A DNA stretch of 64,000 nucleotides from Burkholderiales bacterium (GTDB lineage Bacteria > Pseudomonadota > Gammaproteobacteria > Burkholderiales > SG8-41): positions 86,703 through 150,702 of the forward strand of contig JAUXMZ010000003.1 of assembly GCA_030683105.1 (NCBI GenBank), in the 5' to 3' direction. A model generated the notes under the pieces. That model saw only the letters and a list, made by a program, of their open reading frames with translations. It did not search any database and was not told the origin of the DNA. Of the stretch, positions 1,095-64,000 are shown piece after piece (the stretch's first letter is position 1; each line of letters starts with the position of its first letter). The translations under genes and the position numbers were made by a program.

Positions 1095-2075
1095 TCAGTT
1101 CTGCTTGATCCCGACGTCGCGGATGAGGCGGACTGCCGCCGTCACTTCCGCCTCGATGCTGTCCTTGAACTGCTGCGGCGTATTGCCGACGGCTTCATAA
1201 CCGTCGTTCAGAACGCGTTTGCGTATCGCGGGCAGACTCATGATGTGGGCAATTTTTTCGCCAAGCGTGCTGACCACTGACGGCGGCAGGCCCGCGGGGC
1301 CGAGCAAGCCGAGCCAAGTGTAGACGTCCTCGAAGCCCTTCAGGCCCGCCTCGGCCATCGTCGGTACGTCAGGCAGGGCGGGCGCCCTTGCCGCGCCCGT
1401 GACCGCCAGGCCGCGCAGCTTGCCGGTGCTGACTTGCGGCTGGGAGATGCCGATGTTGTCGAACTTAAAATGGGTTTCACCCGTCACGACCGCGAGCATC
1501 GCGGGGGCGGCGCCCTTGTAGGGCACGTGAACGGTCTTGATTCCTGCACCCGCATTGAGCATCTCGCCCACGATGTGGCTGTAGCCCCCCGTTCCCGAGC
1601 TGGAGTAGTTGAGCTGGCCGGGCCTTGCCTTGGCAAACGCAATGAACTCTTTCAAAGAGCGCACCGGCACCGACGGATGCACGATCAGATATTGCGGAAA
1701 CCTGACGGCGACCGACACCGGAGTGAAATCGGCCACTGGATCGAAAGGTCGCGGGTTCTGCATGACCGGGCTGAATACATGCGCGGTGTTCGACGTGAAC
1801 AACAGGGTGTAGCCATCGGGCGCCGACTGCCGGACAGCCTGGGTGCCGATGGCTCCTGTCGCGCCGGCCCGGTTCTCGACGATTACGGACTTGTCCAGCG
1901 CTGTCCGCAGTTCATGCGCGAGTATGCGCGCATACGTGTCGGTCGAGCCGCCCGCCGGGAACGGCACGATGATCCGCACGACCTGGGTGGGATATCCCTG
2001 CGCCACGCCCAGTCCCGGGGCGGCAATGAGTGCGCAGGCAAGAAACAATCCGGATATGGTTTTCGGGATGCTCAC
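1095..2075 (-). CDS. Bug-family (TctC-like) tripartite tricarboxylate transporter substrate-binding protein
   Basis: RIIVPFPAGGSTD and SSSGTGGYSH motifs typical of Bug/TctC receptors; start moved to GTG 2075 (GAGGAG 6 nt upstream, followed by a signal peptide); stop is 10 nt before the cyclodeaminase-family start. Confidence 0.85.
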   Translation of the reverse strand: MSIPKTISGLFLACALIAAPGLGVAQGYPTQVVRIIVPFPAGGSTDTYARILAHELRTALDKSVIVENRAGATGAIGTQAVRQSAPDGYTLLFTSNTAHVFSPVMQNPRPFDPVADFTPVSVAVRFPQYLIVHPSVPVRSLKEFIAFAKARPGQLNYSSSGTGGYSHIVGEMLNAGAGIKTVHVPYKGAAPAMLAVVTGETHFKFDNIGISQPQVSTGKLRGLAVTGAARAPALPDVPTMAEAGLKGFEDVYTWLGLLGPAGLPPSVVSTLGEKIAHIMSLPAIRKRVLNDGYEAVGNTPQQFKDSIEAEVTAAVRLIRDVGIKQN

Positions 2076-2344
2076 GAATATCTCCTCGTCACGAACAACG
2101 CTGCTGTTATTGGACAAACGGATCAGAACCGGCGCCACACATTCCATGGCGAACGCACCCGCAAATAATACCCGATCAGCGGCGCCACTGTCCCAACGCT
2201 GTCAATGCGAAAAGCGCCGATCAGTGCTTTGGTTTTGACGCAGGTACCATACTATGAACCCTAAAGGGTCAAACTGCGCAGTCCGCTAACAGTTTATGCG
2301 GTTTGCGCGTCTGACCTCATTCGAAGGCGCTATCGCATTAGCGT

Positions 2345-4090
2345 TTATTTGGACGGAATGACAGGGAGCAACACGTGTGATTGCCGGTCAGGCGACATGT
2401 GTAGCGTCACTTTGCCGCCGAAGACGTCGGCCGGCCGGGTGCTGGCGTCGTCGTGCCGAAACGGTCCAACCCCTGTGAATTCAGAGTACATGGCAGCAAG
2501 CCCTGCTGCGGCGCCGCAAGGGTGCATATAGTCCTTCCCCCGAACCGTCAGACCGAGGCGATAGCCGGGGGGCAGCACGATACAGGTCGTCCAGATCTCC
2601 ACATCGAGCTCGTACACTTCGCCCGGAGTCAGAGGCTGTTTTTCATCATGGGCGTGGTATGGCCGGTAAGGAAGCGTCAGTTTCTGATCCAGCTTGCGGT
2701 GCGAGGCGCGCAACCAGCCTTGGGCGATGGGTGTTCTCGGGTCGAGTGCGCCGCGAAACGTCAGCTCCGACATGTTCGGCGAAAACACGCGCACAATAAG
2801 AAAAAGATCGGCATCCGCGGTTTCCGAGGAGACGAAGAGCTTCGCCGCCAGCGGGCCGGTGATTTCGATCTCCTTTTCGAGTGGCGGCGCAAGAAAGGTC
2901 ACACCGTCGCCCAATCCTTCGTAAGTGATGGCGCCTGTGGCAGTGGCGGGTTTGGGGCCGAGGCTTTGATCGCCGGGGTTCAGGTAATACCTGGTCCACT
3001 GGGTGCGCGCGAGCGGCCATTCGCTTTCGTGGCGTTCGACAAACTTTTCTCCGGGATGACGGACCTGCAGCAACACCTTCGGCTGTTTTTTCCAGCCGGT
3101 GTCTTCACTCTTAAGGAAATGGCCGAAAAATTTCTTCTGCAAATTCACGCCGTAGTCGGTGTAAAACTCGGTCCAATGTTCGCGCCCGTGCACTTCGAGC
3201 CACTTCTGTTCAGAGGCCGCCCGCACAAAACCTTCGATGTTTCCCCGCGGGTGTATCCCCTGGCCGCCCCAGTTGGAGGCGGAAAGCAAGGGGACGGTCA
3301 CCTTGGACCAGTCCGGAATCCGGGCCTGCCAGTACTCGTCAAACAGCGGATGCGACAAGATGTCCTTGCCCAGGTCGCAACGGTTGACTTTGATCTCTTC
3401 CTCGGAGAGGGTCTCGGGTCCGGACACCCACTCGCCGTTCACGCGGCTTTTGTAACCCCGTTCTCCATGTCCGTGTTGTTTTGTGGTCGCCCGGTTCGCG
3501 TACCAGTTGGAAATATAGGTGGAATAGATGCCCCCGTGATAGGCAAAATCACGGTAGTAATCGGCCCCACCCTCCCATGCGCATATTGCGGCCAGATGCG
3601 GCGGCTTCAGGCACGCGACATGCCACTGGTTCATCGCGTAGTAGGAGATGCCGTTCAAACCCACTTTGCCGTTGCTCCAGGGTTGCGCGGCAGCCCATTC
3701 GATGCACTGGTACAGGTCCTGGGTCTCGCGGGGAGAGAACGGTTCAAGGTAGCCCGGAGAGCGGCCCGCGCCGCGCGAGTCTATCCGCAGGCAGACATAA
3801 CCATCCGGCACCCACTTTTCCGGATCGACGACTTCCCAGTTCTGGTATTTGTTGGTTGAACCCGCCGCGACTTCCGGAAACCCTTCGATCATGGTTTTCC
3901 ATTGCCCGCCATAGCCATCCTGGAAGGCGAGCCACTTGCCATAAACGCCGTAAGTCATGACCACCGGATATTTGCCTTCCTTCACGGGTCGGAACACATC
4001 GGCTCGCAGAACGACGCCGTCCTCCATGGCAATCGGCGCATCCCAGTCGATCCGCATCCCGTCTTTGATCTCGCTCTTGAACTGGCTCAT
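2345..4090 (-). CDS. CocE/NonD family hydrolase (X-Pro dipeptidyl-peptidase S15-like)
   Basis: 581-aa ORF; N-terminal alpha/beta-hydrolase part (RIDSRGAGRSPG, GISYYAMNQW) and C-terminal jelly-roll-like part typical of CocE/NonD; AAGGA SD before the ATG. Confidence 0.8.
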   Translation of the reverse strand: MSQFKSEIKDGMRIDWDAPIAMEDGVVLRADVFRPVKEGKYPVVMTYGVYGKWLAFQDGYGGQWKTMIEGFPEVAAGSTNKYQNWEVVDPEKWVPDGYVCLRIDSRGAGRSPGYLEPFSPRETQDLYQCIEWAAAQPWSNGKVGLNGISYYAMNQWHVACLKPPHLAAICAWEGGADYYRDFAYHGGIYSTYISNWYANRATTKQHGHGERGYKSRVNGEWVSGPETLSEEEIKVNRCDLGKDILSHPLFDEYWQARIPDWSKVTVPLLSASNWGGQGIHPRGNIEGFVRAASEQKWLEVHGREHWTEFYTDYGVNLQKKFFGHFLKSEDTGWKKQPKVLLQVRHPGEKFVERHESEWPLARTQWTRYYLNPGDQSLGPKPATATGAITYEGLGDGVTFLAPPLEKEIEITGPLAAKLFVSSETADADLFLIVRVFSPNMSELTFRGALDPRTPIAQGWLRASHRKLDQKLTLPYRPYHAHDEKQPLTPGEVYELDVEIWTTCIVLPPGYRLGLTVRGKDYMHPCGAAAGLAAMYSEFTGVGPFRHDDASTRPADVFGGKVTLHMSPDRQSHVLLPVIPSK

Positions 4091-9846: not shown

Positions 9847-11148
9847 ATGGCCCGCTACCTCAAGCAGGGCATATCCACCGCCGCCGCCGAGGCCGCCGAT
9901 CTCAAGGTGCGGCAAACCGTCGAGGGCATACTCGCCGACATTGCCAAACGCGGTGATGCGGCGGTGCGCGAGCTCTCGCAGCAATACGACAATTGGTCGC
10001 CGCCTGCCTTCCGCCTGAACCCGGAGCAGATCGCGGCAATCGTCGCCCGGGTTCCGCCCGAGACCATTGCGGACATCACGTTTGCGCAGCTGCAGATCCG
10101 CAATTTCGCCCAGGCGCAGCGGGCTGCCTTGCGCGACATCGAAATCGAGACGCTGCCGGGCGTGATCCTCGGTCACAAGAACATACCGGTGAGCAGCGTC
10201 GGCTGCTACGTGCCGGGCGGGCGCTATCCGATGGTCGCATCGGCGCACATGAGCATAGTCACCGCCAAGGTTGCCGGCGTGCCGCGCATCATCGCCTGCA
10301 CTCCGCCCAACGAAGGCGAGCCGCATCCGGCCACCATCGCCGCCATGCATCTCGCCGGCGCTGACGAAATCCACGTGCTGGGCGGGGTGCAGGCCGTCGC
10401 CGCGATGGCGCTCGGCACCGAGTCGATCGCGCCGGTCGACATGCTGGTCGGACCCGGCAACGCGTATGTCGCCGAGGCCAAGCGGCAGCTGTACGGCCGC
10501 GTTGGCATCGATTTGTTCGCCGGCCCGACCGAGATTCTGATCGTGGCCGACGAGACCGCAGACGTGGTGATGGTGGCCGTCGATCTGCTGGGACAGGCCG
10601 AACACGGCCCGACTTCGCCGGCTATCCTGATTACCACATCGAGCCAGCTTGCCGAGCAGCTTCCGGAAGAGATCGAGCGCCAGTTGAAGGTGCTGCCGAC
10701 CGCTGATGTGGCGTCGCAGGCGTGGCGGGATTATGGGCAGATCATACTGGTCGACAGTCTAGATGAGGCCGTTGTCGAAGCCGACCGGTGCGCCGCGGAG
10801 CACGTCGAGATCCTGACCCGCGAGCCGCGCTTTTTTCTGGAACGCATGCGCAATTACGGCGCCATGTTCCTCGGTCCGGAAACCAACGTTGCGTATGGCG
10901 ACAAGGTGATCGGCACCAACCATACGCTGCCGACCCAGGGCGCGGCGCGTTATACGGGCGGCCTGTGGGTCGGCAAGTTCCTCAAGACCGTCACCTACCA
11001 GGAGTGCACACCCGAAGCCAGCGTCATGGTGGGCGACTACTGTTCGCGCCTGTGCGCGATCGAACGGTTCTGGGGGCACAAGGAACAGGCCGATCTGAGG
11101 CTGCGGATGTACGGCGGCCGGAAGGTGGGGTTACATGGGCCGAAGTAA
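9847..11148 (+). CDS. histidinol dehydrogenase family (HisD-like) paralogue
   Basis: 433 aa; HisD-like sequence throughout ([32 protein letters not shown] region); starts 2 nt after the cyclase-family stop, in a non-histidine context. Confidence 0.8.
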
Positions 11149-11151
11149 CTT

Positions 11152-11186
11152 GTTCAAGGTTCCAAGTTCAAGGTTCCAAGTTCAAC
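11152..11186. repeat. heptamer tandem array GTTCAAG/GTTCCAA x5
   Basis: gttcaag gttccaa gttcaag gttccaa gttcaac; begins 3 nt after the HisD-like stop. Confidence 0.9.
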
Positions 11187-11287
11187 GCTAACGAGCCACG
11201 AACCATGCCGCAAAGCAAATACCCGGAGGGTACGACCCACGACCCACTAGCCACGTTTTTTATTCATGAAACTTCTGCGGATCCCCA

Positions 11288-11635: not shown

Positions 11636-11783
11636 GGTTGTTCGTGGTTCGTTGCTCGTTGATCGTAGAATCCTAGCCTCTAACCACTTCCGAATCACCA
11701 ATCACTATTCACGAGTCACGAGCAACGAATCACGAATCACGAATCACGAACCACGAACCACGAACCACGATCCACGTTCAACG
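11636..11783. repeat. paired inverted heptamer arrays (GTTCGTG-type, then CACGAAT/CACGAAC-type)
   Basis: 11636-11669 ggttgttcgtggttcgttgctcgttgatcg, then 11693-11783 aatcaccaatcac..cacgaatcacgaatcacgaatcacgaaccacgaaccacgaacc; the two arms are complementary, so a long imperfect hairpin is possible; fills the whole gap between two + strand genes. Confidence 0.85.
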
Positions 11784-12436: not shown

Positions 12437-12550
12437 GCGTTCAAGGTTCGTTGTTCGTGATTGGTGATTGGTGATTGGTGATTGGTGATTGGTGATTGGT
12501 GGTTCGTAAACGGTGAGAGGCTAGAGTTCAACGTTCAACGATTAACGAGC
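12437..12550. repeat. heptamer array region, core GTGATTG x6 (12457-12498)
   Basis: Starts directly after the TGA stop at 12434-12436; six perfect GTGATTG units flanked by GTTCGTT/GTTCAAC-type units. Confidence 0.9.
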
Positions 12551-12689
12551 CATTTTTTTCAATAATCGCTCGACGGGTACGATCAACGTTCATGGTCCGT
12601 TTCTGCACGATCACCATCCGAGTAAGTTAAACTGACATCTTGAATACTCGCTTTCCCCGCAGGGTCGGGGGAGGCGATTATTTTAAAGG

Positions 12690-14877: not shown

Positions 14878-15023
14878 CTTGTGAGCCTACAAGTAACGGG
14901 ACGAGTGGGTTTTTTCCCAATATTTCAGCACGATGGGACGATACAGGGAATGCAGCGCCGACACAAGACAGGGCCCCGCACGGGTATGGCATCGGCCTTT
15001 ATATCTGGCTTATTCGGGGATGG

Positions 15024-15098
15024 GGTCAAGGTTCAGAGTTCAAGGTTCCGGGTTCAACAACAGGTTCCAGGTTCAAGGTTCAAGGTTCAAAATTCAAA
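15024..15098. repeat. heptamer array GTTCAAG-type (about 10 units, one 5-nt interruption)
   Basis: ggtcaag gttcaga gttcaag gttccgg gttcaac aacag gttccag gttcaag gttcaag gttcaaa attcaaa. Confidence 0.85.
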
Positions 15099-15220
15099 GT
15101 GCAGGTCGGAGTCGGTTCTCCCTGACACAATCGGCTGCGGGCCGGCTGAATCTGTTCATGGTGCCGGTTGCTTGTCGTACAGTCATGGGTAAAATCATGC
15201 TGACTTCAATCTGACCACAC

Positions 15221-15493
15221 ATGAAAACCATCTCTTATGCTTTCTTCGTGACCGAGGCCGAGTATCCCAGCCTGCAAGCCGCCTGCCCCGGTGATTTTCC
15301 GCCATCCTATGCGGAATTTTGCGCCAGCGTGGAGCGGAGCATTCGGGAGATGGCTGACACCGTCGCCCTCGAAAAAGTCTACGTTCGCGTCGATGAATTC
15401 CTCGCATGGTGTGCCGAAGCCAGCCTCAGGCCCAACAACATCAGCCGCACCAGATATGCCATCGTGATCGGCAACCCCTGGGCTGACTCCTAA
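15221..15493 (+). CDS. hypothetical protein (90 aa)
   Basis: ORF with host-like codon bias; no family recognised; its TAA stop overlaps the start of a heptamer array. Confidence 0.45.
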   Translation: MKTISYAFFVTEAEYPSLQAACPGDFPPSYAEFCASVERSIREMADTVALEKVYVRVDEFLAWCAEASLRPNNISRTRYAIVIGNPWADS

Positions 15494-15527
15494 TTGGTGA
15501 TTGGTGATTGGTGATTGGTGATTAATA
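15493..15527. repeat. heptamer array ATTGGTG x4 + ATTAATA
   Basis: Direct reading; overlaps the stop codon of the preceding ORF. Confidence 0.9.
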
Positions 15528-17412: not shown

Positions 17413-17420
17413 CAAGGCGA

Positions 17421-17539
17421 GTTCAAGGTTCAAAGTTCAAGGTTCAAAGTTCAAAGTTCAAAGTTCAAGGTTCAAGGTTCAAGGTTCAAGGTTCAAGGCT
17501 CAAGGCTCAAGGCTTAAGGCTCAAGGCTCAAGGCTCACT
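17421..17539. repeat. heptamer array, 17 units (GTTCAAG/GTTCAAA then GCTCAAG variants)
   Basis: Largest array in the window; begins 8 nt after the NnrU TAG stop; the apparent ORFs with GSKFKVQ repeats are artefacts of this array. Confidence 0.95.
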
Positions 17540-17594
17540 AGGGGAGTGCCTGGTTTAGAATCGGTGAACCGCGGGATAACCAACAAGAGGAGTC

Positions 17595-23938: not shown

Positions 23939-24034
23939 GCTGGACCGTCTCCCGTCTGAATTGATCTGTCCACGTGATTGTTCGCAACGGTGCTATTGTC
24001 TCATTATCGCAAGCACTGCGAGGGAGAGAACGGG

Positions 24035-24097
24035 GTTCAAGGTTCAAGGTTCAAAGTTCAAAGTTCAAAGTTCAAAGTTCAAAGTTCAAAGTTCGGG
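24035..24097. repeat. heptamer array GTTCAAG x2, GTTCAAA x6, GTTCGGG
   Basis: Direct reading; upstream flank of the small ORF at 24223. Confidence 0.95.
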
Positions 24098-24222
24098 GAT
24101 GAAGACCCGTTGCGCAGCCAATCCGGCGAAAAAACCAGTAAACTGTTTGTTATATTCCAACGCGAAATGTTGCGGCGGGTCAATTCGGGTTGAAGCGTTA
24201 ATGTCCGGGAGGGCAGGGGAAA

Positions 24223-24459
24223 ATGACGAAGAAACTCTCGCGTCCGATCAAATCTGATCGGGACTATAAAGATGCGTCAGCTGTCACGAATAAAATTCGC
24301 AACCAAACCGAGCGCGAGCCGGCAGCGGAACGCCGTTTGCAAGCGCTGATTGACGCCATGGAGAAATACGATAGCGAGGACGACGAGGGACCGAATGATG
24401 GAGCGGAAGAGGCCTATAATCTGCCTGGTCGCCGCTGGTCAGACAGGGATGAGGGATGA
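24223..24459 (+). CDS. small acidic protein resembling the pre-HTH N-terminal segment of HigA-type antitoxins (tentative)
   Basis: 78-aa ORF with GGAGG SD; RPIKSDRDYKDA..RRLQALIDAMEKYD resembles the PIxTExDYxxAL...L..LIExYE N-terminus of HigA-like regulators, but no HTH domain follows. Confidence 0.4.
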   Translation: MTKKLSRPIKSDRDYKDASAVTNKIRNQTEREPAAERRLQALIDAMEKYDSEDDEGPNDGAEEAYNLPGRRWSDRDEG

Positions 24460-24503
24460 GGGTTCAAAGTTCAAGGTTCAAAGTTCAAGGTTCAAGGTTC
24501 GGG
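24445..24503. repeat. heptamer arrays GGGATGA x2 then GTTCAAA/GTTCAAG x5 + GTTCGGG
   Basis: Direct reading; the stop codon of the small ORF lies in the GGGATGA units; same orientation and same GTTCGGG end unit as the array at 24035. Confidence 0.9.
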
Positions 24504-24578
24504 ACTGAGGGATAGGATGGGGGTTGTCGTCTCTAAGCGATTGAATAATTCCAGTGGGTAACGACAAGTGATACGTAC

Positions 24579-30125: not shown

Positions 30126-30230
30126 AAAGCCGTAAGCCGTAAGCGGAAGTCTCTAAGGTCTTATTCTGCTCACTGCTCACTGCTCACTGCTCACTGCTCA
30201 CTGCTCACTGCTCACTGCTCACTGCTTACC
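30126..30230. repeat. two heptamer arrays: AAGCCGT x3 (30126-30146) and GCTCACT x8 + 1 degenerate (30168-30230)
   Basis: Direct reading; begins 6 nt after the stop of the LigI-like gene (minus strand reads GTGAGCA); lies inside a putative operon. Confidence 0.95.
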
Positions 30231-30236
30231 GTTGCT

Positions 30237-31118
30237 CTATTCGAAGCCGTAGAGTCGCGCGGGATTGGTGACCAGGATTTGTTCGCGTATGGCTGCATCG
30301 GGAACCCACTCGCAGAACAGGTCGAGCAGACCGCCGTCATTGGGCATGGGCCCATCCCACACAGGATGCGGCCAGTTGCTGCCCCACACCAGGCGGTCGG
30401 GACGAGCGGCAACCAGTGCTTCGACCAGCGGTTTAATGTCAGTGAAGTGCGGCGGCCCTGAATCGGACAGGCGGTACCAGCTCGAAATCTTGACCCAGCA
30501 ATCGTTGCGCTGCCGGATGATTCTGAGCAGCGCCTGGAAGCCGGGTGCGTTCACACTGTCGCCGCCGCGCACGCGCCCGAGGTGGTCGAACACGAGTGGC
30601 GTCGGGCAATCGAGAAGCTTTTGTTCCAGCGGCACCAGTTCGGCACACTTGTCGACGTGCAACTGCACATGCCAGCCATAGGGTTTGATTTTGGCGGCAA
30701 TGGCGTCGATCAACTCGGTGCCGCCGTAGCCTTTGACCATGGTGGAGAGCCGCACGCCGCGAATGCCGCCTTTGTGCAGGCGTTCGATTTCCCGGGCCGA
30801 GACGTCGGGTGCAACGCCTGCGACGCCGCGTGCGCGCTTCTGCCCAAGTTCGGCGATGACATCAAGCGACACCGAATTGTCGAAGCCGTAGACGCTGGCG
30901 TTGACCTGGACCGTGCGCGCTATCCCCAGCACCTCGCACATCGCCAGGTAATCGGACAGCGTGGCAAGCGGCGGCGTGTAGCTGCGTGCCGCGACCAGCG
31001 GATAGCGGGACTGGTCCTCAAAAACGTGACAATGGCAGTCGACCACGCCCGCCGGCATCGCGTGTTTGGGCCTGCGCGGCTGCGGGTCGGGCCCCTGGCA
31101 TATTGGTGGTTGAGTCAT
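30237..31118 (-). CDS. amidohydrolase family protein, 2-pyrone-4,6-dicarboxylate lactonase (LigI)-like
   Basis: 293 aa; VVDCHCHVFEDQSRYPL N-terminal motif and TIM-barrel amidohydrolase pattern; start uncertain (ATG 31118 has no SD; ATG 31058 is the alternative). Confidence 0.7.
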   Translation of the reverse strand: MTQPPICQGPDPQPRRPKHAMPAGVVDCHCHVFEDQSRYPLVAARSYTPPLATLSDYLAMCEVLGIARTVQVNASVYGFDNSVSLDVIAELGQKRARGVAGVAPDVSAREIERLHKGGIRGVRLSTMVKGYGGTELIDAIAAKIKPYGWHVQLHVDKCAELVPLEQKLLDCPTPLVFDHLGRVRGGDSVNAPGFQALLRIIRQRNDCWVKISSWYRLSDSGPPHFTDIKPLVEALVAARPDRLVWGSNWPHPVWDGPMPNDGGLLDLFCEWVPDAAIREQILVTNPARLYGFE

Positions 31119-31160
31119 GGTGAGTGAAGGGTGAAGGGTGAAGGGTGAAGAGTGAAGGTT
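31119..31160. repeat. heptamer array GGTGAGT GAAGGGT x3 GAAGAGT GAAGGTT
   Basis: Direct reading; abuts the annotated start codon of the LigI-like gene. Confidence 0.9.
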
Positions 31161-31207
31161 GCCGATGGTTTTCGCTTTACTCCTAACTCTTCACGCCTCA
31201 CCTTGTT

Positions 31208-38521: not shown

Positions 38522-39847
38522 ATGTCCGTTGAACAGCGCTCATGGCTCAAGCGCCTGCGCGAACGCATCATCTCGGAAGACGACAGCGAGCACGAAAGGC
38601 TCAAAAAAACACTGGCGATCTTTGCATGTGGCCTGATGGCTTGTGGCTCGATGCTGTGGCTTGCCATCTATCAGGCCATGGGCATGAAGTTTTCCGCCAC
38701 GGTGCCGTTGACGTACGTTACCGTGTCCGCCGTGTCATTCGGGATCTACGTCTGGAATCGCGATTTTGCGGCCTTCCGGACGGTGCAGGCGAGCCTGTTC
38801 CTGTTCGTGCCTTTCATGATGCAATGGAGCATCGGCAGCTACGTCAGTTCCTCCGGCGTGATGCTGTGGGCGCTGCTGGCGCCGGTCGGCATCATGATTT
38901 TTCAGGGGGCGCGCAATTCCCTGCCATGGTTTTTTGCCTACCTGGTGATGACCGCGGTGTCCGGGGTGTTCGATTTTTACCTGGGCACGGGCACCCAGTC
39001 GGGGGTGACGATGCAGAGCATCGCGGTGTTTTTCACGCTCAACTTCGTCGCGATATCGGTGATCGTCTTCCTGCTGATCAGCTACTTCGTGGGGCAGCGC
39101 GACATACTGGAGACGGCACTCGCCAAACAGAACAGTCTGCTGCATTGGGAACAGGAAAGATCGGAGCGCTTGCTGCTCAACATTCTGCCGGGGCCGATCG
39201 CGGAGCGGCTCAAGGACAAACAGACGATTATCGCCGACGGTTTCGCCGACGTGACGGTGATGTTCGCCGACATTGTCGACTTTACCCACTTGTCCGGGAA
39301 GATGTCCCCCAGATTCCTGGTCGCGATGCTGAACCAGCTATTTTCGCATTTTGATGAGCTGGCGGAGAAATACAGCGTTGAGAAAATCAAGACCATCGGC
39401 GACGCCTACATGGTGGCGGCTGGCCTCGACTCCCATTACCGTGCCGTCAAAAAGGACGAGCCGGAACTCGATTACAGCGACTCGGTGGTCAGCATGGCGA
39501 TCGAAATGCGCGACTATGTGGCAGGGCTGACCAGCGAGAGGGTGCAGGGTCTGCAAATCCACGTCGGCATCAGCTCGGGACCGGTGGTGGCGGGCGTGAT
39601 CGGCACCAAGAAATTCATCTATGATTTATGGGGCGACACGGTGAACCTTGCCAGCCGCGTGACCGACGTGGCCGGTCCTGGCGTCATCCTGGTCGACGTC
39701 GCGACCCACATGCGGCTGCGCAACCTTTACGATTTCGAAGGCCCGTTGACCTATAATTTGAAGGGCAAAGGGGATGTCAAGGCGTATGTCGTCCTGCAGC
39801 GCAAAACAGGGTTGCCGCCGGCCATGCCGGTGCACGTCATCGCCTAG
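38522..39847 (+). CDS. membrane-anchored class III adenylate/guanylate cyclase
   Basis: N-terminal ~190 aa with about 6 TM helices; catalytic domain VTVMFADIVDFT..KTIGDAYMVAAGL..WGDTVNLASR. Confidence 0.85.
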   Translation: MSVEQRSWLKRLRERIISEDDSEHERLKKTLAIFACGLMACGSMLWLAIYQAMGMKFSATVPLTYVTVSAVSFGIYVWNRDFAAFRTVQASLFLFVPFMMQWSIGSYVSSSGVMLWALLAPVGIMIFQGARNSLPWFFAYLVMTAVSGVFDFYLGTGTQSGVTMQSIAVFFTLNFVAISVIVFLLISYFVGQRDILETALAKQNSLLHWEQERSERLLLNILPGPIAERLKDKQTIIADGFADVTVMFADIVDFTHLSGKMSPRFLVAMLNQLFSHFDELAEKYSVEKIKTIGDAYMVAAGLDSHYRAVKKDEPELDYSDSVVSMAIEMRDYVAGLTSERVQGLQIHVGISSGPVVAGVIGTKKFIYDLWGDTVNLASRVTDVAGPGVILVDVATHMRLRNLYDFEGPLTYNLKGKGDVKAYVVLQRKTGLPPAMPVHVIA

Positions 39848-39944
39848 CAGCCTGTCGGACTTGGCTCCCGTTCACCGGAACGGGTGGTGTTAACGAATCG
39901 CCGTTAATCGACGCTTCGGTGACAGGCTGCTTAAGCAAGAGGCT
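39845..39944. repeat. roughly 100-nt structured repeat element, copy 1 (second copy at 63868)
   Basis: About 90 percent identical to 63868-63965; terminal inverted repeat AGCAGCCTGTC/GACAGGCTGCT plus internal hairpins; its first three bases are the TAG stop of the cyclase gene. Confidence 0.85.
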
Positions 39945-40029
39945 TCGCGTTTCGAAATGCTGCACTGGCCGGAACCAACGCCACTTGCATGGCATTTTTT
40001 TCACCTCGTTCTTAAGTTTCTATATTTTA

Positions 40030-40061
40030 GGAGTTTGTCGGGGCTCAGCCCGACAAACTCC
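40030..40061. terminator. 13-bp perfect hairpin GGAGTTTGTCGGG-GCTCAG-CCCGACAAACTCC
   Basis: Between the convergent cyclase and glnE genes; overlaps the last codons of glnE; T-run upstream on the + strand side. Confidence 0.6.
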
Positions 40062-42795
40062 TGCCGCGGCCGGCTTGCGGCGATGCCGCGCGGGTTCCTG
40101 CAAAAATCTCGTCCCATAATTCCAGCACCGCCTGTGCCTCATCGCGAACCGATTCCGGCGGCACCCGGGCATAGGTTTCCCCCTGCAGCCGCAGACCGTG
40201 CTGCAACTGGCGGAACCGCCGGTAGGCGGCGTGCACCGCCAGCGCGCTGGTCTCCGCGATCAGGCCCAGACTCGCCGCGAGTTTGAGCAACGCCAGGTTG
40301 CCGATATTGCCGGTGAGCCCGGCGTGCGCGTGCGAATAGCCCAGCACCAGATATTGCACGAGAAATTCGACATCGACGATGCCACCGCGGTCGTGCTTGA
40401 TGTCGAACAGGGGGGTGGGGTTGGGATGCGCATCGAGCATTTTCTGGCGCATGGCGACGATTTCGCCGCGCAGCTCGGGCAGATCGCGCACGTGGCTCAG
40501 GATCGCTATGCGCAGCGCTTCGAATTTGCGGCCGATTTCCTTGTCTCCCGCGGCAAAGCGGGCGCGGGTGAGCGCCTGATGTTCCCATACCCAGGCGTGC
40601 CGGGTCTGATAATCGCTGAAGCTATCGAGCGGGCTGACCAGCAGGCCGCTCACGCCATCCGGACGCAGCCTGAGATCGGTTTCATACAATATGCCGCCGG
40701 CGGTGGTGGTGGTGAGCCAGTTGTTGATGCGCTGCGCCAGCCGCGAGTAAATTTCCGCTGCTTCGGGGGCGTCGTCCTCGTACAGAAAAACGATATCGAG
40801 ATCGGAGGCGTAGCCCAGTTCCTTGCCGCCCAGTTTGCCGTAGCTGATGATGGCAAAAACCGGCTCATCACGATGGCGTTGTGGCAGTTTGGACCAGGCG
40901 AGGCGCAGCACCACCGCCAGGATCAGGCACGCCAGGTCTGACAGATGGTCGCTCAGGGTTTCCAGCGGCAGCGTGCCGGCCAGATCCTGGGCTACCAGGC
41001 GCATGGTTTGCGCGTGCTTGAAATGGCGCAGAACGTCCATCTGCTTTTCGGTGTCGTCTGCGGCGTCAATGAGCTGTATGTGCAGCAGGCGGGAGAGTTC
41101 GGGCCAGTCGGGCGCCGCATACAGTGAGCGGGTGTCGAGCAGTTCGTCGAGCAGGATCGGGTGCTGGGTCAGGTATTGAGCGACCCACGGACTCGCGCTC
41201 ATCATGTCCGAGAGGCGCGACAGCGCCTGTGGATACTCTTCGAGCATCGCGAGGTAGGATTCGCGGCGGCTTACCGCTTCGAACAACTGCAGTATGCGTT
41301 CCAGTGTAGCGTCGGGACTGGCGTGCTGCGCGGCGGTCTCGACGGAGAGCGGCACCAGGCGGTCAAGACGCGACTGGCTGGCAGCCGGCATCTGGCGGTA
41401 GCGGCTGCTCGCGCGCATGGCCTGCAGCCGCCGCTGCAGGTCACCGGCGCGCTTGTAGCCCAGCGTGGTCAGCTGCGCCATGGCGCCATCGGCATTGGCC
41501 TCGTCAGCGCTGTCCAGCCACAACCCGGCAAGCGCGTGCTGCTCATTAGGCGTGGCGGCAAAAATCTGATTGAAGTGGCGGGTGACGTGCTCGCGGTGCC
41601 GGTTGAGCGCAGCCAGCATCGCGGCATAGTCATTGAACCCCATGCTGTGCGCGACCAGTGCGCGGTCGGCGTCCCCGGCCGGCAGCATCTGGGTTTGCCT
41701 GTCGTCAAGATACTGCAGCCGGTGCTCGAGGTTGCGCAGGAACAGATAGGCTTCGCCCAGTTCGGCCACCGCGGGACCGGGGAGCAGATTGCGTTCCGCC
41801 AGCAGCGGCAGCACGGTGAGCGTCGGCTGCTGGCGTAAAGCCGGATCACGGCCGCCGCGGATCAGCTGGAACACCTGAATGATAAATTCTACTTCGCGGA
41901 TGCCGCCCGGCCCGAGCTTGATGTCGTCGAGCATGTCGCGCCGCTCGACCTCGCGCCGGATCTGCCCGTGCAGGTTGCGCAGCGAGGCGAATGCACTGTA
42001 GTCGAGGTGGCGGCGGTAGATGAAAGGACGGGCCTGTTCCAGCAGTTCGGCGCCGCGATCGCCGGTCACCGGCCGGCCTTTGATCCAGGCATAGCGCTCC
42101 CATTCCCGGCCCTGGGTGATGAAATAGTTCTCGAGCATGTCAAAACTGGCCACCAGCGGGCCGCTGTCGCCGTATGGCCGCAGCCGCATGTCGACGCGGA
42201 ATACATAACCATCGGCGGTGATTTCGTTTAACGCCGCGATCAGGCGTCGCGCCAGACGCACGAAGTATTCGTGGTTGCTCAGCGGCCGCTTGCCGTCGGT
42301 TTCGCCTTCTTCCGGATAGGCAAAAATAAGATCGATGTCGGACGACACGTTGAGCTCGCGGCCGCCGAGCTTGCCCATGCCGATCACATGCAACTGCTGG
42401 ACGGCCCCGCTTGCGGCGCCGATCGGCCGGCCATGGGGTTCTGAATGCCAGCGGCTCAGATGCGCCAGCGCGGAGCAGAGGGTGATTTCAGCCAGGGCTG
42501 TCGCAGTGGCGATGACTTCGGCAAGGTCGGCAAGCCCGCCGATGTCGCGCGCGATCAGCCGCAGCATCACGCGCTTGCGCAGCATGCGCAGCGTGCGCTG
42601 CAGCGCGGCTTCGTCGGCGGCCGGATGCGCGGCAAGGAATGATTCCATTTCCCCGGCCGAGTAGGGTCGCCCGCAGCCGCTGTCCGCCGCCAGTTGCGGT
42701 TCGGCATCGAGCAGCATGCAGACATAACGGCTGTAGTGGCGCGCAGCCGTCAGCGCCGGGTAGGCGCCGCTGTCGTGCGCGTTGTTCAGTTCCAT
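40045..42795 (-). CDS. glnE: bifunctional glutamine synthetase adenylyltransferase/adenylyl-removing enzyme
   Basis: 916 aa with two nucleotidyltransferase motifs (GKLGGRELNVSSDIDLIF and GKLGGKELGYASDLDIVF). Confidence 0.95.
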   Translation of the reverse strand: MELNNAHDSGAYPALTAARHYSRYVCMLLDAEPQLAADSGCGRPYSAGEMESFLAAHPAADEAALQRTLRMLRKRVMLRLIARDIGGLADLAEVIATATALAEITLCSALAHLSRWHSEPHGRPIGAASGAVQQLHVIGMGKLGGRELNVSSDIDLIFAYPEEGETDGKRPLSNHEYFVRLARRLIAALNEITADGYVFRVDMRLRPYGDSGPLVASFDMLENYFITQGREWERYAWIKGRPVTGDRGAELLEQARPFIYRRHLDYSAFASLRNLHGQIRREVERRDMLDDIKLGPGGIREVEFIIQVFQLIRGGRDPALRQQPTLTVLPLLAERNLLPGPAVAELGEAYLFLRNLEHRLQYLDDRQTQMLPAGDADRALVAHSMGFNDYAAMLAALNRHREHVTRHFNQIFAATPNEQHALAGLWLDSADEANADGAMAQLTTLGYKRAGDLQRRLQAMRASSRYRQMPAASQSRLDRLVPLSVETAAQHASPDATLERILQLFEAVSRRESYLAMLEEYPQALSRLSDMMSASPWVAQYLTQHPILLDELLDTRSLYAAPDWPELSRLLHIQLIDAADDTEKQMDVLRHFKHAQTMRLVAQDLAGTLPLETLSDHLSDLACLILAVVLRLAWSKLPQRHRDEPVFAIISYGKLGGKELGYASDLDIVFLYEDDAPEAAEIYSRLAQRINNWLTTTTAGGILYETDLRLRPDGVSGLLVSPLDSFSDYQTRHAWVWEHQALTRARFAAGDKEIGRKFEALRIAILSHVRDLPELRGEIVAMRQKMLDAHPNPTPLFDIKHDRGGIVDVEFLVQYLVLGYSHAHAGLTGNIGNLALLKLAASLGLIAETSALAVHAAYRRFRQLQHGLRLQGETYARVPPESVRDEAQAVLELWDEIFAGTRAASPQAGRGRSLSG

Positions 42796-47205: not shown

Positions 47206-48056
47206 GCATTGAAACCAAGACAAACAAAAACGCCGGAGCTGCGCCTGCGATGTCGCGCATCGCCGCGGTGCAGATGGCTTCGGGCCCCAACATCGAGGCC
47301 AATCTCAACGAGGCGCGGCGCCTGATCGAGATCGCGGTGGAACGCGGTGCGCAACTCGTTGCGCTGCCCGAGTATTTCGGCATCATGGGCATGCGCGATG
47401 GCGACAAGGTTGCTGCGCGCGAAGAGCATGGCAAAGGCCCGATACAGGAGTTTTTGTCGAACACGGCAAAAAAACATTCGATCTGGCTGGTCGGAGGATC
47501 CGTGCCGCTGGTGTCCTCGGTAGCAACCAAGGTTCGCAACAGCTGTCTGGTGTTCGACGACAAGGGCGGACTTGCGGCGCGCTACGACAAGATTCATCTG
47601 TTCGGCTTCAAGATGGGGGAGGAGCGTTACAGTGAAGAACTCACCATCGAGCCGGGCAGCGATGTCGTTACCGTGGATACGCCCGTGGGCCGGCTTGGGT
47701 TGTCGATCTGCTATGACCTGCGTTTCCCTGAACTGTACCGCGCGATGAAGGAAGTCGACATCATCCTCGTGCCATCGGCCTTTACCGAGACCACCGGCAA
47801 GGCGCATTGGGAGACCCTGATCCGGGCGCGTGCCATCGAAAACCTGGCCTATGTGCTGGCGCCGGCGCAGGGTGGCTATCATGTGAACGGCCGCGAGACG
47901 CATGGGGACTCGATGATCGTCGATCCCTGGGGGGTGGTGATAGACCGCCTGACGCGCGGCTCCGGCGTGGTGACGGGCGGCATCAATCTCGATCATCTGC
48001 GGCGGCTGCGCCAGAGCCTGCCGGCGCTGCAGCACCGGATCCTGCATCAATGTTAA
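47202..48056 (+). CDS. carbon-nitrogen hydrolase family protein (Nit/omega-amidase-like)
   Basis: 284 aa; ALPEYF (Glu), KIHLF (Lys), LSICYDLRFPE (Cys) catalytic-triad contexts. Confidence 0.88.
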   Translation: MSIETKTNKNAGAAPAMSRIAAVQMASGPNIEANLNEARRLIEIAVERGAQLVALPEYFGIMGMRDGDKVAAREEHGKGPIQEFLSNTAKKHSIWLVGGSVPLVSSVATKVRNSCLVFDDKGGLAARYDKIHLFGFKMGEERYSEELTIEPGSDVVTVDTPVGRLGLSICYDLRFPELYRAMKEVDIILVPSAFTETTGKAHWETLIRARAIENLAYVLAPAQGGYHVNGRETHGDSMIVDPWGVVIDRLTRGSGVVTGGINLDHLRRLRQSLPALQHRILHQC

Positions 48057-48105
48057 GTTCCGGGTTCAAAGTTCCAGGTTCAAAGTTCCGCGTTCCGGGT
48101 TGAAA
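48057..48105. repeat. heptamer array GTTCCGG GTTCAAA GTTCCAG GTTCAAA GTTCCGC GTTCCGG GTTGAAA
   Basis: Begins at the base after the TAA stop of the Nit-family gene. Confidence 0.9.
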
Positions 48106-48176
48106 ACCTGCGGGCGCGCCACGATCTTTAATACTTTAACGAGCCACCAGCGCTGTCAGCCGGTGCTGGAACAATA

Positions 48177-49700
48177 ATGAAACCACAGAATAAAACCGCA
48201 ACACGAACCATTCTTCACAATACCCGCTTGACGGGTACGAATCACGAATCACGAATCACGACACACGACACATCGTTCGCGACCGCGAACGACATCCTGT
48301 TGGCGCCATACGCGCTCGACGGCAGCCGGCTGCAGTCGATATTCGGCCAGATCATGACGCACAGCGTCGATTATGCCGATCTCTATTTTCAGTACAACCG
48401 CAGCGAGTCATGGAGTCTGGAAGAAGGCATCGTCAAGTCCGGCAGCTTCAGCATCGACCAGGGCGTGGGCGTGCGGGCGATCAGCGGCGAGAAGACTGCG
48501 TTCGCCTATTCCGATGACATCAGTTTTGATGCGCTCAATACCGCGGCGCATGCCACCCGCGCCATCGCCCGCCAGGGACGCGGCGGATCGGCGCAGGTGG
48601 AGAAGCGCAACACCGGGCACAATCTGTATCTGCCGCAGGATCCACTGGCAAGCCTTGATGACCAGGACAAGGTGTCGCTGCTGGAACGGTTGGAACGCCA
48701 CGCCCGCGCACTCGACCCGCGCGTAACCCAGGTGATGGCCTTTCTGGCCGGGGAATACGAGGTGGTGCTGGTGGCGCGCAGCGATGGCGTGCTGGCGGCC
48801 GACGTGCGGCCCCTGGTGCGGCTTTCCGTTCAGGTCATCGTCGAGCACGAAGACCGGCGCGAGCAGGGCAGTGCCGGCGGCGGCGGGCGCTTCGATTACG
48901 CTTATTTCACCGATGCCATGCTGCAGGACTACGCCAGGAAAGCAGTGGACCAGGCGCTGATCAATCTCGACGCGCGGCCCGCGCCTGCGGGAACCATGAC
49001 GGTGGTGCTGGGGTCGGGCTGGCCGGGCGTGCTGCTGCATGAGGCGATAGGCCATGGCCTCGAAGGCGATTTCAACCGCAAGGGCACCTCGGCATTCAGC
49101 GGCCGCATCGGCGAGCGCGTCGCCGCACCCGGGGTCACGGTGGTTGACGACGGCACCATGGCACAGCGGCGCGGCTCGCTCAACATCGACGACGAAGGCA
49201 ACCCGACGCAGTGCAATGTGCTGATCGAAAACGGCGTGCTCAGGAGTTACCTGCAGGACAGCCTCAATGCGCGCCTGATGAAAGTGGCGCCCACCGGCAA
49301 CGGACGGCGCGAGTCGTACGCGCATATCCCCATGCCGCGCATGACCAACACCTATATGCTCAACGGCGGCAGCGATCCGCAGGAGATCATCGCCTCGGTC
49401 AAAAACGGCCTGTATGCGGTGAACTTCGGCGGCGGCCAGGTCGATATCACCAGCGGCAAGTTCGTGTTTTCGGCCTCCGAAGCCTACATGATCGAAAACG
49501 GCAAGGTGACCTATCCGGTGAAAGGCGCGACGCTGATCGGCAACGGCCCGGATGCGCTGACCCGGGTGGCGATGATAGGCAACGACATGGCGCTCGATTC
49601 CGGTGTCGGCACGTGCGGCAAGGAAGGCCAGAGCGTGCCGGTGGGCGTCGGGCAACCGACCCTGAGAATCGACGGGTTGACTGTTGGCGGCACTGTCTAG
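48177..49700 (+). CDS. tldD: metalloprotease TldD
   Basis: DYADLYFQ.., [26 protein letters not shown] motifs; the N-terminal ~30 codons are repeat-derived, so the true start is uncertain. Confidence 0.9.
48218..48273. repeat. hairpin motif CAATACCCGCTTGACGGGTAC followed by heptamers GAATCAC x3, GACACAC, GACACAT
   Basis: Motif recurs at 52604-52624 and, degenerate, at 12560-12580; lies inside the 5' end of the tldD ORF. Confidence 0.85.
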
Positions 49701-51025: not shown

Positions 51026-51562
51026 ATGGCGCAAGACGAAAATGGAGCGGAAACCAACCAGGACACCCTGCTTAATCTTGAGCGGGTAGGCAAGGGCACG
51101 GCGCTCGCCGATGAAATTTACGGCCTGGTTGGCAGATCGCAGTTTTTCGCCGAGTTCAGCCGCGAGGACATCATGCTGCTCTCCGGTTATATGGAAGCGT
51201 TCCGCGCCCAGCCCGGAGAAACCATCATTCGCGAACACGATGAAGGTGATTTCATGCTGCTGATCATCGAGGGCGAAATCGACATATTCAAAAAAGGCCT
51301 GCGCCAGGAGCAGCAGCACATGACCAGTGTCGGACCGGGCATGACGCTGGGCGAGATGTCGATGATAGACGGCGAGCCGAGATTCGCCACCTGCGTTGCA
51401 ACCCAGTCCACCCTGTTCGCCGTGCTCACACGCGACAACATGGCAAGAATCATTCTTGACCACCCGAGTCTGGGTTCCAAGATACTGGTCAAGCTGGTCA
51501 GCATGCTGTCGCTGCGGCTGCGCCAGACCAGTGCCAGGCTGCTCAAGTACATGGAGCGTTAG
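51026..51562 (+). CDS. stand-alone cyclic nucleotide-binding domain protein
   Basis: 178 aa; ..GETIIREHDEGDFMLLIIEGEIDIF...GMTLGEMSMIDGEPRFATCVA.. cNMP-binding beta-roll pattern. Confidence 0.8.
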   Translation: MAQDENGAETNQDTLLNLERVGKGTALADEIYGLVGRSQFFAEFSREDIMLLSGYMEAFRAQPGETIIREHDEGDFMLLIIEGEIDIFKKGLRQEQQHMTSVGPGMTLGEMSMIDGEPRFATCVATQSTLFAVLTRDNMARIILDHPSLGSKILVKLVSMLSLRLRQTSARLLKYMER

Positions 51563-51595
51563 GAATTTGCCGGACTTGTGTGCGACAAATTCCTA
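51560..51595. terminator. 10-bp stem TAGGAATTTG ... CAAATTCCTA with 16-nt loop
   Basis: Includes the TAG stop of the cNMP-binding gene and is followed by AAAATG; the loop is large, so function is uncertain. Confidence 0.3.
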
Positions 51596-52550: not shown

Positions 52551-52762
52551 ACGCGGATACACACAGATAAAGTCAAAAACAATCAGCCACAGAGGATTCA
52601 CTTCAATACCCGCTTGACGGGTACACAGAGGGAATATAAAAAAGTCGAATCACGACTCGCGATTCACGGCATTTCGGAACCGCCAAGGCGCCAAGTCGCC
52701 AAGAAAAACTGATTGAAACCGCAGATGAGCGCCGATGAACGCGGATAGGCATGCAGGGTGTG
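52507..52762. repeat. composite repeat: two direct copies of a CCGCCAAGG..AAACCGCAGAT..CGCGGATA element flanking the TACCCG hairpin motif
   Basis: Copy A 52507-52560, copy B 52679-52762; the CCGCCAAGGCGCCAAG core recurs inverted at 54158-54174, and the GGATAGGC..ATGCAGGGTGTG tail recurs at 54883-54908. Confidence 0.8.
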
Positions 52763-54157: not shown

Positions 54158-54282
54158 CTTGGCGCCTTGGCGGTCTATCAAAGCAGTAATTGGTAATTGG
54201 TAAATAGTCATAACCTTCGCAGGACGCTTTGCGCTTTTACCATTCACTATTCACTATTCACTATTCACGAATCACGAATCAC
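54158..54282. repeat. repeat cluster: inverted CCGCCAAGGCGCCAAG core, GTAATTG x2-3, then TATTCAC x3 / GAATCAC x2
   Basis: Direct reading; the last units overlap the stop codon and final codons of the minus-strand adenosyltransferase gene. Confidence 0.85.
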
Positions 54283-63160: not shown

Positions 63161-63517
63161 ATGATCGATATGAAACTTCAAAAATATTTCGCAATGGCGG
63201 CTGCGCTGTTGTTATTTGCAGCGGCAGGCGGACTCCACGCCGCATCCGGCGACCCGGTTGCCGGCAAGAAGAAAACCACGATGTGCATCGGTTGTCACGG
63301 CATCGGCGGTTACAAGACCGCGTTTCCCGAGGTGTACAGCGTGCCCAAGATAGGCGGCCAGCACGCAGCCTATATCGTCAAGGCGCTGCAGGAATACAAA
63401 TCCGGCGCGCGCAGTCATCCGTCGATGAAAGCCATTGCGGCCGGTCTGTCCGATCAGGATATGGCGGATCTCGCGGCGTATTATGCAACCGACTCGGTGA
63501 AGTCGGCAGGCAAGTGA
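63161..63517 (+). CDS. monohaem c-type cytochrome (cytochrome c4 half-like)
   Basis: Signal peptide, CIGCH haem-binding site, ..GGQHAAYIVKALQEYKSGAR.. pattern; start may be ATG 63170. Confidence 0.85.
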   Translation: MIDMKLQKYFAMAAALLLFAAAGGLHAASGDPVAGKKKTTMCIGCHGIGGYKTAFPEVYSVPKIGGQHAAYIVKALQEYKSGARSHPSMKAIAAGLSDQDMADLAAYYATDSVKSAGK

Positions 63518-63546
63518 CAGCGGACAAATCAGTGAGGAATCTATCG

Positions 63547-63870
63547 ATGGATAAAAAGATTTTATTGGCTGCCTGCTGTGCAGCATTCTTCGCCAGCGCG
63601 TCGGCCATGGCAGCGGATCCTGCCGCGGGCAAGGAAAAATCGAAAACCTGCGCCGCATGCCACGGTTCCGACGGCAACAGTCAGTCAGCAGAATTCCCGC
63701 GGCTTGCGGGACAGCATTATGATTACCTGGTGAAGGTGCTCGGCGACTATAAATCGGGCGCGCGCAAAAATGCCGTCATGGCGCCGATGGTGGCGAATCT
63801 GTCCAAGCGTGACATCGCCGATCTCGCTGCGTATTACTCGAGTCAGCAGGGGCTGGCCATCAAGCGCTAG
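63547..63870 (+). CDS. monohaem c-type cytochrome (cytochrome c4 half-like)
   Basis: Start set at ATG 63547 (MDKKILLAACC.. signal peptide), CAACH site, ..AGQHYDYLVKVLGDYKSGAR..; paralogue of the preceding gene. Confidence 0.85.
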   Translation: MDKKILLAACCAAFFASASAMAADPAAGKEKSKTCAACHGSDGNSQSAEFPRLAGQHYDYLVKVLGDYKSGARKNAVMAPMVANLSKRDIADLAAYYSSQQGLAIKR

Positions 63871-63965
63871 CAGCCTGTCGGACTTGGCTCCATTCACCGG
63901 AACGCGTAGCGTTAACGAATCGCTGTTGATCGACGCTTCGGCGCCAGGCTGCTTAAGAAGAGGCT
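63868..63965. repeat. roughly 100-nt structured repeat element, copy 2
   Basis: Aligns with 39845-39944 (about 10 differences including 2 single-base indels); again its first three bases are the TAG stop of the upstream gene. Confidence 0.85.
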
Positions 63966-64000
63966 GTAGGTCGGCAATGCCCCCACGACACGTTAGCGGA

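Follow-up and report, generated by a model that had tools for sequence, protein, structure and literature searches.

A probable IS1182-derived MITE family whose YTAR target sites are often stop codons

The repeat of about 100 nt that occurs twice in the 64-kb stretch of Burkholderiales DNA analyzed here (the window) very probably represents a family of non-autonomous MITEs derived from the ISAzo2-like clade of IS1182 insertion sequences, which insert at YTAR, a motif that frequently coincides with a stop codon. The preliminary description of this DNA had proposed a mobile element that inserts at, or creates, gene ends. The first half of this proposal agrees with the IS1182-type ends, the dispersed copies and the empty orthologous loci described below, while donation of the stop codon is refuted for the first copy. 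Coordinates are those of the window, on the + strand unless stated otherwise.

The two copies, at 39845-39944 and 63868-63965, are about 90% identical, as originally reported, and differ by 8 mismatches and by 2 gaps of a single base in an alignment of roughly 100 columns. The likeness runs abruptly from cTAG to ..AAGAGGCT, and both the flanks and the upstream coding sequences are unrelated. The left-end 23-mer AGCAGCCTGTCGGACTTGGCTCC has two occurrences in the window, with 0 expected. It was also correctly noted that the initial TAG of both copies is the stop codon of the upstream gene. At 39845-39847 it ends the ORF of a class III cyclase (38522..39847, 441 aa), and at 63868-63870 it ends a cytochrome c gene. 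The latter is the 107-aa gene at 63547..63870, and not the 195-aa mechanical ORF. In the region 63170-63870, a divergent SulP/STAS transporter gene is followed by a tandem pair of small cytochrome c genes, of about 115 and 107 aa, an arrangement that is kept in five other loci (L050-L054).

The core of the repeat, module A, spans 39845..39931 in copy 1. Its left terminal inverted repeat, GCAGCCTGTCGGACTTGGCTCC, is located at 39847..39868, and its pairing partner, an inverted copy inside the module (GACAGGCTGCT), at 39921-39931. The 11-bp inverted repeat of the preliminary description, AGCAGCCTGTC/GACAGGCTGCT, is exact in copy 1 and carries one mismatch in copy 2. Its two inner hairpins are both perfect in copy 1 only, and most relatives, like copy 2, have a degenerate CCCGTTC hairpin. 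In all, 15 complete copies of module A are found, with a mean column identity of 90%.

The repeat is real, but the unit of about 100 nt is not the complete element. Copy 1 continues past 39944 to about 40061, and what had been seen is the left module of a composite MITE of about 215 nt (39845..40061), located between the convergent cyclase and glnE genes and consisting of the TA, module A, a spacer (module C) and a palindrome (module B). This composite aligns end to end with seven other loci (L011, L012, L013, L015, L016, L018 and L030), and the likeness stops at both ends. Composites are thus present at 8 loci including the window (at least 7 others), with the same internal junctions, ends of the form ..CTCC-TAG and unrelated flanks beyond. 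Module C (..AAGAGGCTTCGCGTTTCGAAA..CACTTGCATGGCATTTTTTTCACC.., about 95 nt, 39932..40027) is conserved in the 8 composites, and one weak promoter-like match is found in it, at 39998-40026. Module B (40028..40061) is the palindrome TAGGAGTTTGTCGGGGCTCAGCCCGACAAACTCC, the outer arm of which is the right terminal inverted repeat. In the module-B palindrome AGGAGTTTGTCGGGGCTNAGTCCGACAAACTCC, the outer arm is a diverged copy of the left terminal repeat. Other composite copies end in ..CCGACAAACTCC-TAG.

Copy 2 (63868..64000) has module A at 63868-63953, followed by a different module (GTAGGTCGGCAATGCCCC..), and is cut by the end of the window. At the 97%-identical orthologous locus L050 the composite is about 405 nt long and continues to ..CCGACAAACTCC-TAG. 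Module A is followed by a different module in L038 as well, stands alone in L014, and is joined to module B in two truncated variants (L024 and L040). The inner right end of module A reads CTTAAG and not CTAG, so module A alone may not be the mobile unit. The module-B type of palindrome is also found by itself, in L004 and at a third site in the window. The latter element, at 51560..51595, is a palindrome of 36 nt made up of terminal inverted repeats only, TA-GGAATTTGCCGGACTTGTGTGCGACAAATTCC-TA, and its TAG is the stop codon of the gene for a cNMP-binding protein (51026..51562). The element at 51560-51595 measures 36 nt, that at 39845-40061 about 215 nt and that of L050 about 405 nt, and only mechanical ORFs overlap them. 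In one composite (L030, 5837-5900) the junction reads AAAG instead of CTAG, and as a result the upstream open frame is 13 codons longer and stops at a TAG inside module A.

The ends of these elements are those of IS1182-family insertion sequences. Window positions 39843-39868 are identical at 26 of 26 bases to the left end of a complete 1.7-kb element in locus L037, which has the structure cTAG-CAGCCTGTCGGACTTGGCTCC....AAGTCCGACAGGCTG-CTAGg, with the same ends on both sides and CTAG flanks. Its single ORF encodes a protein of 481 aa with the Pfam domains DUF772, DDE_Tnp_1 and DDE_Tnp_1_6, and this protein passes the NCBIfam IS1182 equivalog NF033551 with 301 bits (cut-off 270). Named relatives were reached by searching plasmids with tblastn. 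The same ends, flanked by CTAG, are found in ISAzo2, on plasmid 2 of Aromatoleum aromaticum EbN1, which is annotated as an IS1182-like element, and in an unannotated insertion sequence on pPNAP01 of Polaromonas naphthalenivorans (Burkholderiales). On P. putida pKF715A, an IS1182-family copy has the same terminal repeat at its left end. The core CAGCCTGTCGG is common to the window element, ISAzo2, the pPNAP01 element and pKF715A. No full-length IS1182 partner is seen within the 64-kb window. An IS630/Tc1-type origin was first considered for the TA flanks, and was dropped once the full-length element proved to belong to the IS1182 family.

A second full-length insertion sequence with the same left end is present in locus L033 (about 1566-3121). 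It appears degenerate, since its transposase frame is split into several ORFs and its right flank is mutated (..GGCTGCCAG).

The distribution of the family was assessed by scanning the left-end 21-mer AGCAGCCTGTCGGACTTGGCT across one genome per species. It is found at 40 loci, in bins assigned to Burkholderiales, other Beta-, Gamma- and Deltaproteobacteria and Verrucomicrobiota, and in 38 of the 40 it is preceded by CT or TT, giving the junction YTAG-CAGCC. What follows the 21-mer differs. Some loci have a perfect palindrome of 36-40 nt closed by ..CAGGCTGCTAG, others have the module seen in the window, and further loci run into a contig end, as is typical of multi-copy IS elements. The many copies expected of a MITE are therefore borne out, by 40 dispersed loci with unrelated flanks and by 8 composites that likewise have unrelated flanks.

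At least 22 of the 40 loci are in a single MAG, CAYIRZ01 (they include L005, L006, L010-L017, L020, L023, L024, L034 and L038-L040). This MAG is labeled 'uncultured Streptomycetaceae', and its copies, at least 22 in number, are of the Burkholderiales type and 85-90% identical to that in the window; its taxonomic label looks doubtful. Across loci L001-L040, the 21-nt end AGCAGCCTGTCGGACTTGGCT is identical in bins labeled Verrucomicrobiota and Beta-, Gamma- and Deltaproteobacteria. This identity would reflect either an unusually strict conservation of the terminus in this IS1182 clade or else recent horizontal spread.

Orthologous loci without an element show whose stop codon is involved. Six orthologous cyclase-glnE loci, with proteins 76-90% identical, lack the element. 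The cyclase is 441 aa long in all six, and in each it stops with TAG at the identical codon, preceded by c in three (cTAG) and by t in three (tTAG). At one extreme of these loci the convergent glnE gene overlaps the cyclase by 11 nt, and at the other it lies 28 nt downstream. The idea that the element supplies the TAG of copy 1 is thereby refuted. Because the six element-free orthologues share it, the cyclase TAG (39845..39847) is ancestral, and the element landed on it, using its TA (or the YTAG) as the target within a YTAR site. The element of the type at 51560 is kept in orthologues that are 89% identical (L139-L141) and is absent from L142 (83% identical), which ends at the same TAG. As with the cyclase, this TAG too is a target that was present before the element.

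The situation is different for copy 2, where the cytochrome c stop at 63868..63870 is also the left junction. The element is present in the 97%-identical orthologues L050-L052, whereas the nearest element-free orthologues (L053, L054 and L057, 82-89% identical) have TGA at the same codon. Of 22 further, more distant relatives, 14 stop with TGA and 8 with TAG. TGA contains no TA target, so that either the stop codon changed before the insertion, or the insertion was not a simple one. The TAG of copy 2 may go back to a TAA or TAG that was there before the insertion, or its G may have come with the element. In L050 and L051, the right-end CTA of the element is the stop codon of a convergent DUF1841 gene. 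Presence/absence variation at orthologous sites is thus observed three times, with six empty cyclase loci, with L053, L054 and L057 compared to L050-L052, and with L142 compared to L139-L141.

As judged from its orthologues, the glnE gene on the opposite strand is the one clear case of a stop codon supplied by an element. The right arm and loop of module B encode its last four codons (SLSG) and TGA stop, at 40045..40059 on the - strand. The protein in the window ends in ..GRGRSLSG*, and its orthologues end in ..GRGRPD*, ..GRGR* or ..GRGRTKR*. The right junction of copy 1 also lacks the expected TA, with ..ACTCC running directly into TGCC. A 6-nt in-frame loss at this junction, relative to an empty site like that of L046 (TAG followed by TCCTGCCGCG), would explain the missing TA.

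The frequency with which these elements meet stop codons can be accounted for by the target site. CTAG is about five-fold under-represented in the window, with 16 sites and about 82 expected from dinucleotide shuffles. Half of the CTAG sites in the window are stop codons. For the comparison, a site was scored as a stop if it is the in-frame stop of an open frame of at least 100 codons. Among the 39 copies with enough upstream sequence, 18 (about 46%) have their left end on an in-frame stop, and the other two frames account for 3 and 8 (Fisher p = 3e-4). Element-free sites are in-frame stops in 6 of 14 cases for CTAG and in 13 of 29 cases for TTAG, so that the 46% of element ends on stop codons compares with a background of 43-45%. 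The supply of target sites is enough to explain the whole stop-codon effect. The coincidence follows from YTAR targeting in a genome that has kept CTAG mostly at the ends of genes, and calls for no other mechanism. Stop codons are overlapped at the outer right ends likewise, in the opposite orientation (including L050), whichever module faces the gene.

Most copies are flanked by Y-TA-G on the left and C-TA-R on the right, the window copy 1 being without the right-hand TA. In four elements the flanking 4-mers are unequal, TTAG/CTAG in L008 and L011, CTAG/CTAA in L018 and TTAG/CTAA at window position 51560. This favors a duplication of TA within a YTAR target, by an element whose own termini are G...C, and a strict 4-bp duplication of CTAG is disfavored by the same four elements. 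The TA duplication is favored and not proven: it rests on this handful of unequal flanks, and a 4-bp direct repeat is reported for ISPse1, an IS1182-family element captured in an experiment (PMC3281130).

The preliminary description also offered a different reading, in which the repeat is a conserved RNA module of 3' UTRs (a terminator, an sRNA precursor or a protein-binding site). In a fuller form of this reading, long hairpins in the transcript beyond the stop codon would serve as a terminator or sRNA precursor, or as an mRNA stabilizer or RNase III site, and the element would be retained for that function. Several properties point in this direction. The element would be co-transcribed with the upstream gene, some of the insertions are old enough to be shared by orthologues that are 89-97% identical, and copy 1 has a predicted fold of -41.7 kcal/mol (z = -3.0), with -88.6 kcal/mol (z = -4.2) for a 221-nt composite. 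In addition, hairpin 2 of module A varies only by changes from C to T on the + strand, which give G.U pairs, and never from G to A, although these changes are few, lie at two CpGs and are a hint only. On the other hand, copy 2 has no folding advantage over shuffled sequence (z = -0.09), the whole window has zero Rfam matches at the gathering score, with only chance-level matches (E > 1) in a permissive search near the element, and there are no terminator-like sites on either strand in 39700-40200. No covariation above shuffled controls is found among the 15 complete module-A copies. When these are placed on the structure of copy 1, 91.7% of the cells are paired, equal to the shuffled mean of 91.7%, with one double-change pair, and the CCCGTTC hairpin is paired in just 72% of cells. 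The terminal stem is invariant, but it is the transposase-binding repeat and is uninformative on RNA. Finally, the overlap with stop codons occurs at both ends of the element, at a frequency equal to the YTAG background. A retained RNA function is therefore unsupported by the Rfam, terminator and covariation tests and is considered quite unlikely. Since the composite is predicted to fold strongly, side effects on mRNA stability would be plausible.

Two other origins have also been weighed. The spread of REPs is generally attributed to RAYT transposases. Short intergenic palindromes in mosaics of modules, as seen here, resemble BIMEs. REPs are imperfect palindromes of 20-40 nt with a head of the GTAG type, and the conserved head of the window elements, which contains TAG, is loosely similar to it. 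A REP/BIME-type unit spread by a RAYT (TnpA-REP) transposase would make the likeness to an IS end coincidental, and this is very improbable, with 26 of 26 bases being those of the end of an IS1182-family element with a DDE transposase, and with the same ends on three further full-length IS copies. Moreover, the units are between 36 and about 400 nt long, with true terminal inverted repeats, TA flanks and the head YTAG-CAGCC, and no RAYT gene was noticed within the 64-kb window. Segmental duplication or gene conversion extending over the ends of the genes could account for there being just two copies of module A in the window, about 90% identical. The likeness starts exactly at cTAG, however, the upstream cyclase and cytochrome c sequences are unrelated, dozens of copies with unrelated flanks are found in other genomes, and empty orthologous sites exist. 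This origin has practically no chance of being correct, and was rejected on the unrelated coding sequences, the dispersed copies and the empty cyclase sites.

A mechanism can be proposed for the IS1182-derived MITEs. They would keep the terminal repeats to which the transposase binds, (G)CAGCCTGTCGGACTT.., and, encoding no transposase themselves, would be moved in trans. Insertion would occur at YTAR (CTAG, TTAG, CTAA or TTAA), most likely with duplication of the central TA, and an element that starts with G and ends with C would then produce the left junction Y-TA-G and the right junction C-TA-R. Because the element starts with G and the TA is duplicated, insertion into TAA or TAG would always leave a TA-G stop. 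In a host such as this Burkholderiales genome, where G+C is about 61%, CTAG is strongly depleted and close to half of the YTAG sites that remain are stops, many insertions would hit a TAG or TAA stop exactly and restore a TAG in frame, with no change to the upstream protein. Copy 1 would be a composite of about 215 nt on the ancestral cyclase TAG, with an imprecise right junction from which glnE took four residues and a TGA. Copy 2 would be a related composite, sharing only module A with copy 1.

A more speculative idea, to which we give only a small chance, is that the terminal G...C beside a duplicated TA is an adaptation. Insertion into TAA or TAG in either orientation would then regenerate TAG, the stops of high-G+C genomes would be safe landing sites, and paired hairpins on convergent stops (L050 and cyclase/glnE) might have been co-opted as barriers at transcript 3' ends.

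The window contains other small repeats. Tandem arrays of 7-nt units are found in many intergenic regions, in both orientations, the longest having about 18 units. The units are (G/A)GTTCAA, TGATTGG, CGAATCA, CTGCTCA and GGTGAAG. Arrays are located at 11143-11200, 15023-15110, 17416-17545, 24030-24100, 24454-24505 and 48049-48110, and further ones at 12444-12510, 15484-15525, 11683-11782, 30166-30235, 31111-31164 and 54239-54282. A second small family, the hairpin ACCCGCTTGACGGGT, often lies beside these arrays, with members at 12545-12582, 48203-48240 and 52589-52626 of the window and at about 4376-4416 of L050. A 41-nt member is located inside module A in L050-L052 and is absent from copy 2 of the window. 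By this comparison of insertion sites, the hairpin family appears to have been recently active.

For annotation, these results mean that the roughly 200 nt between the cyclase and glnE, as well as the segments that follow the cytochrome c and cNMP-binding genes, are best regarded as derived from transposons and not as regulatory RNA, and that the last four residues of glnE are encoded by the element. They also illustrate how a repeat can seem to donate stop codons merely through YTAR targeting in a CTAG-poor genome. A mosaic MITE family is added to the little-studied IS1182 family, and a duplication of TA within a YTAR target is suggested for it. The family extends a known kind of element, the MITE, and does not open a new kind of system.

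Among small repeats in general, the Correia elements (CREE/NEMIS) are similar to the window elements in being small and flanked by TA, with inverted-repeat ends and long hairpins. They lie beside genes and are co-transcribed with them, and have documented promoter, IHF and RNase III functions. To our knowledge, they are confined to Neisseria, and their sequence is unrelated to that of the window elements. REP/BIME mosaics and the rhizobial RIMEs consist, as does the family in the window, of intergenic palindromic modules combined in mosaics. REPs are without IS-type terminal repeats, in contrast to the window elements, the ends of which are those of a DDE element of the IS1182 family.

Full-text literature searches with the repeat sequences CAGCCTGTCGG and GAGTTTGTCGG return unrelated primer matches only, and searches for IS1182 together with CTAG, or for MITEs together with stop codons, give MITEPsy1 and ISPse1 as the only useful precedents. 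MITEPsy1 of Pseudomonas syringae is an element of 100 nt that inserts at CTAG or YTAA (PMC3189936). Like the window elements, it is about 100 nt long and non-coding, has terminal inverted repeats that resemble the ends of a resident IS, and uses a CTAG/YTAA target. It differs in its derivation from ISPsy2, which belongs to another IS lineage with unrelated repeats (GGAAGGTCTGAAAAAGCC), and in its gammaproteobacterial host. A 4-nt duplication is reported for it, and the part of that report available to us makes no mention of an overlap with stop codons (PMC3189936).

The closest counterparts are the full-length IS1182 relatives themselves (ISAzo2, the pPNAP01 element and an IS in the CAIZWU01 bin), which have the same terminal inverted repeat, CAGCCTGTCGG(A/G)CTT, and CTAG on both sides. 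These ISAzo2-like elements are 1.5-1.7 kb long and encode a DDE transposase, whereas the window elements, with lengths of 36 to about 400 nt, are non-coding and assembled from mosaic modules, and, unlike the ISAzo2-like elements, carry a diverged right repeat (GAGTTTGTCGGACTT).
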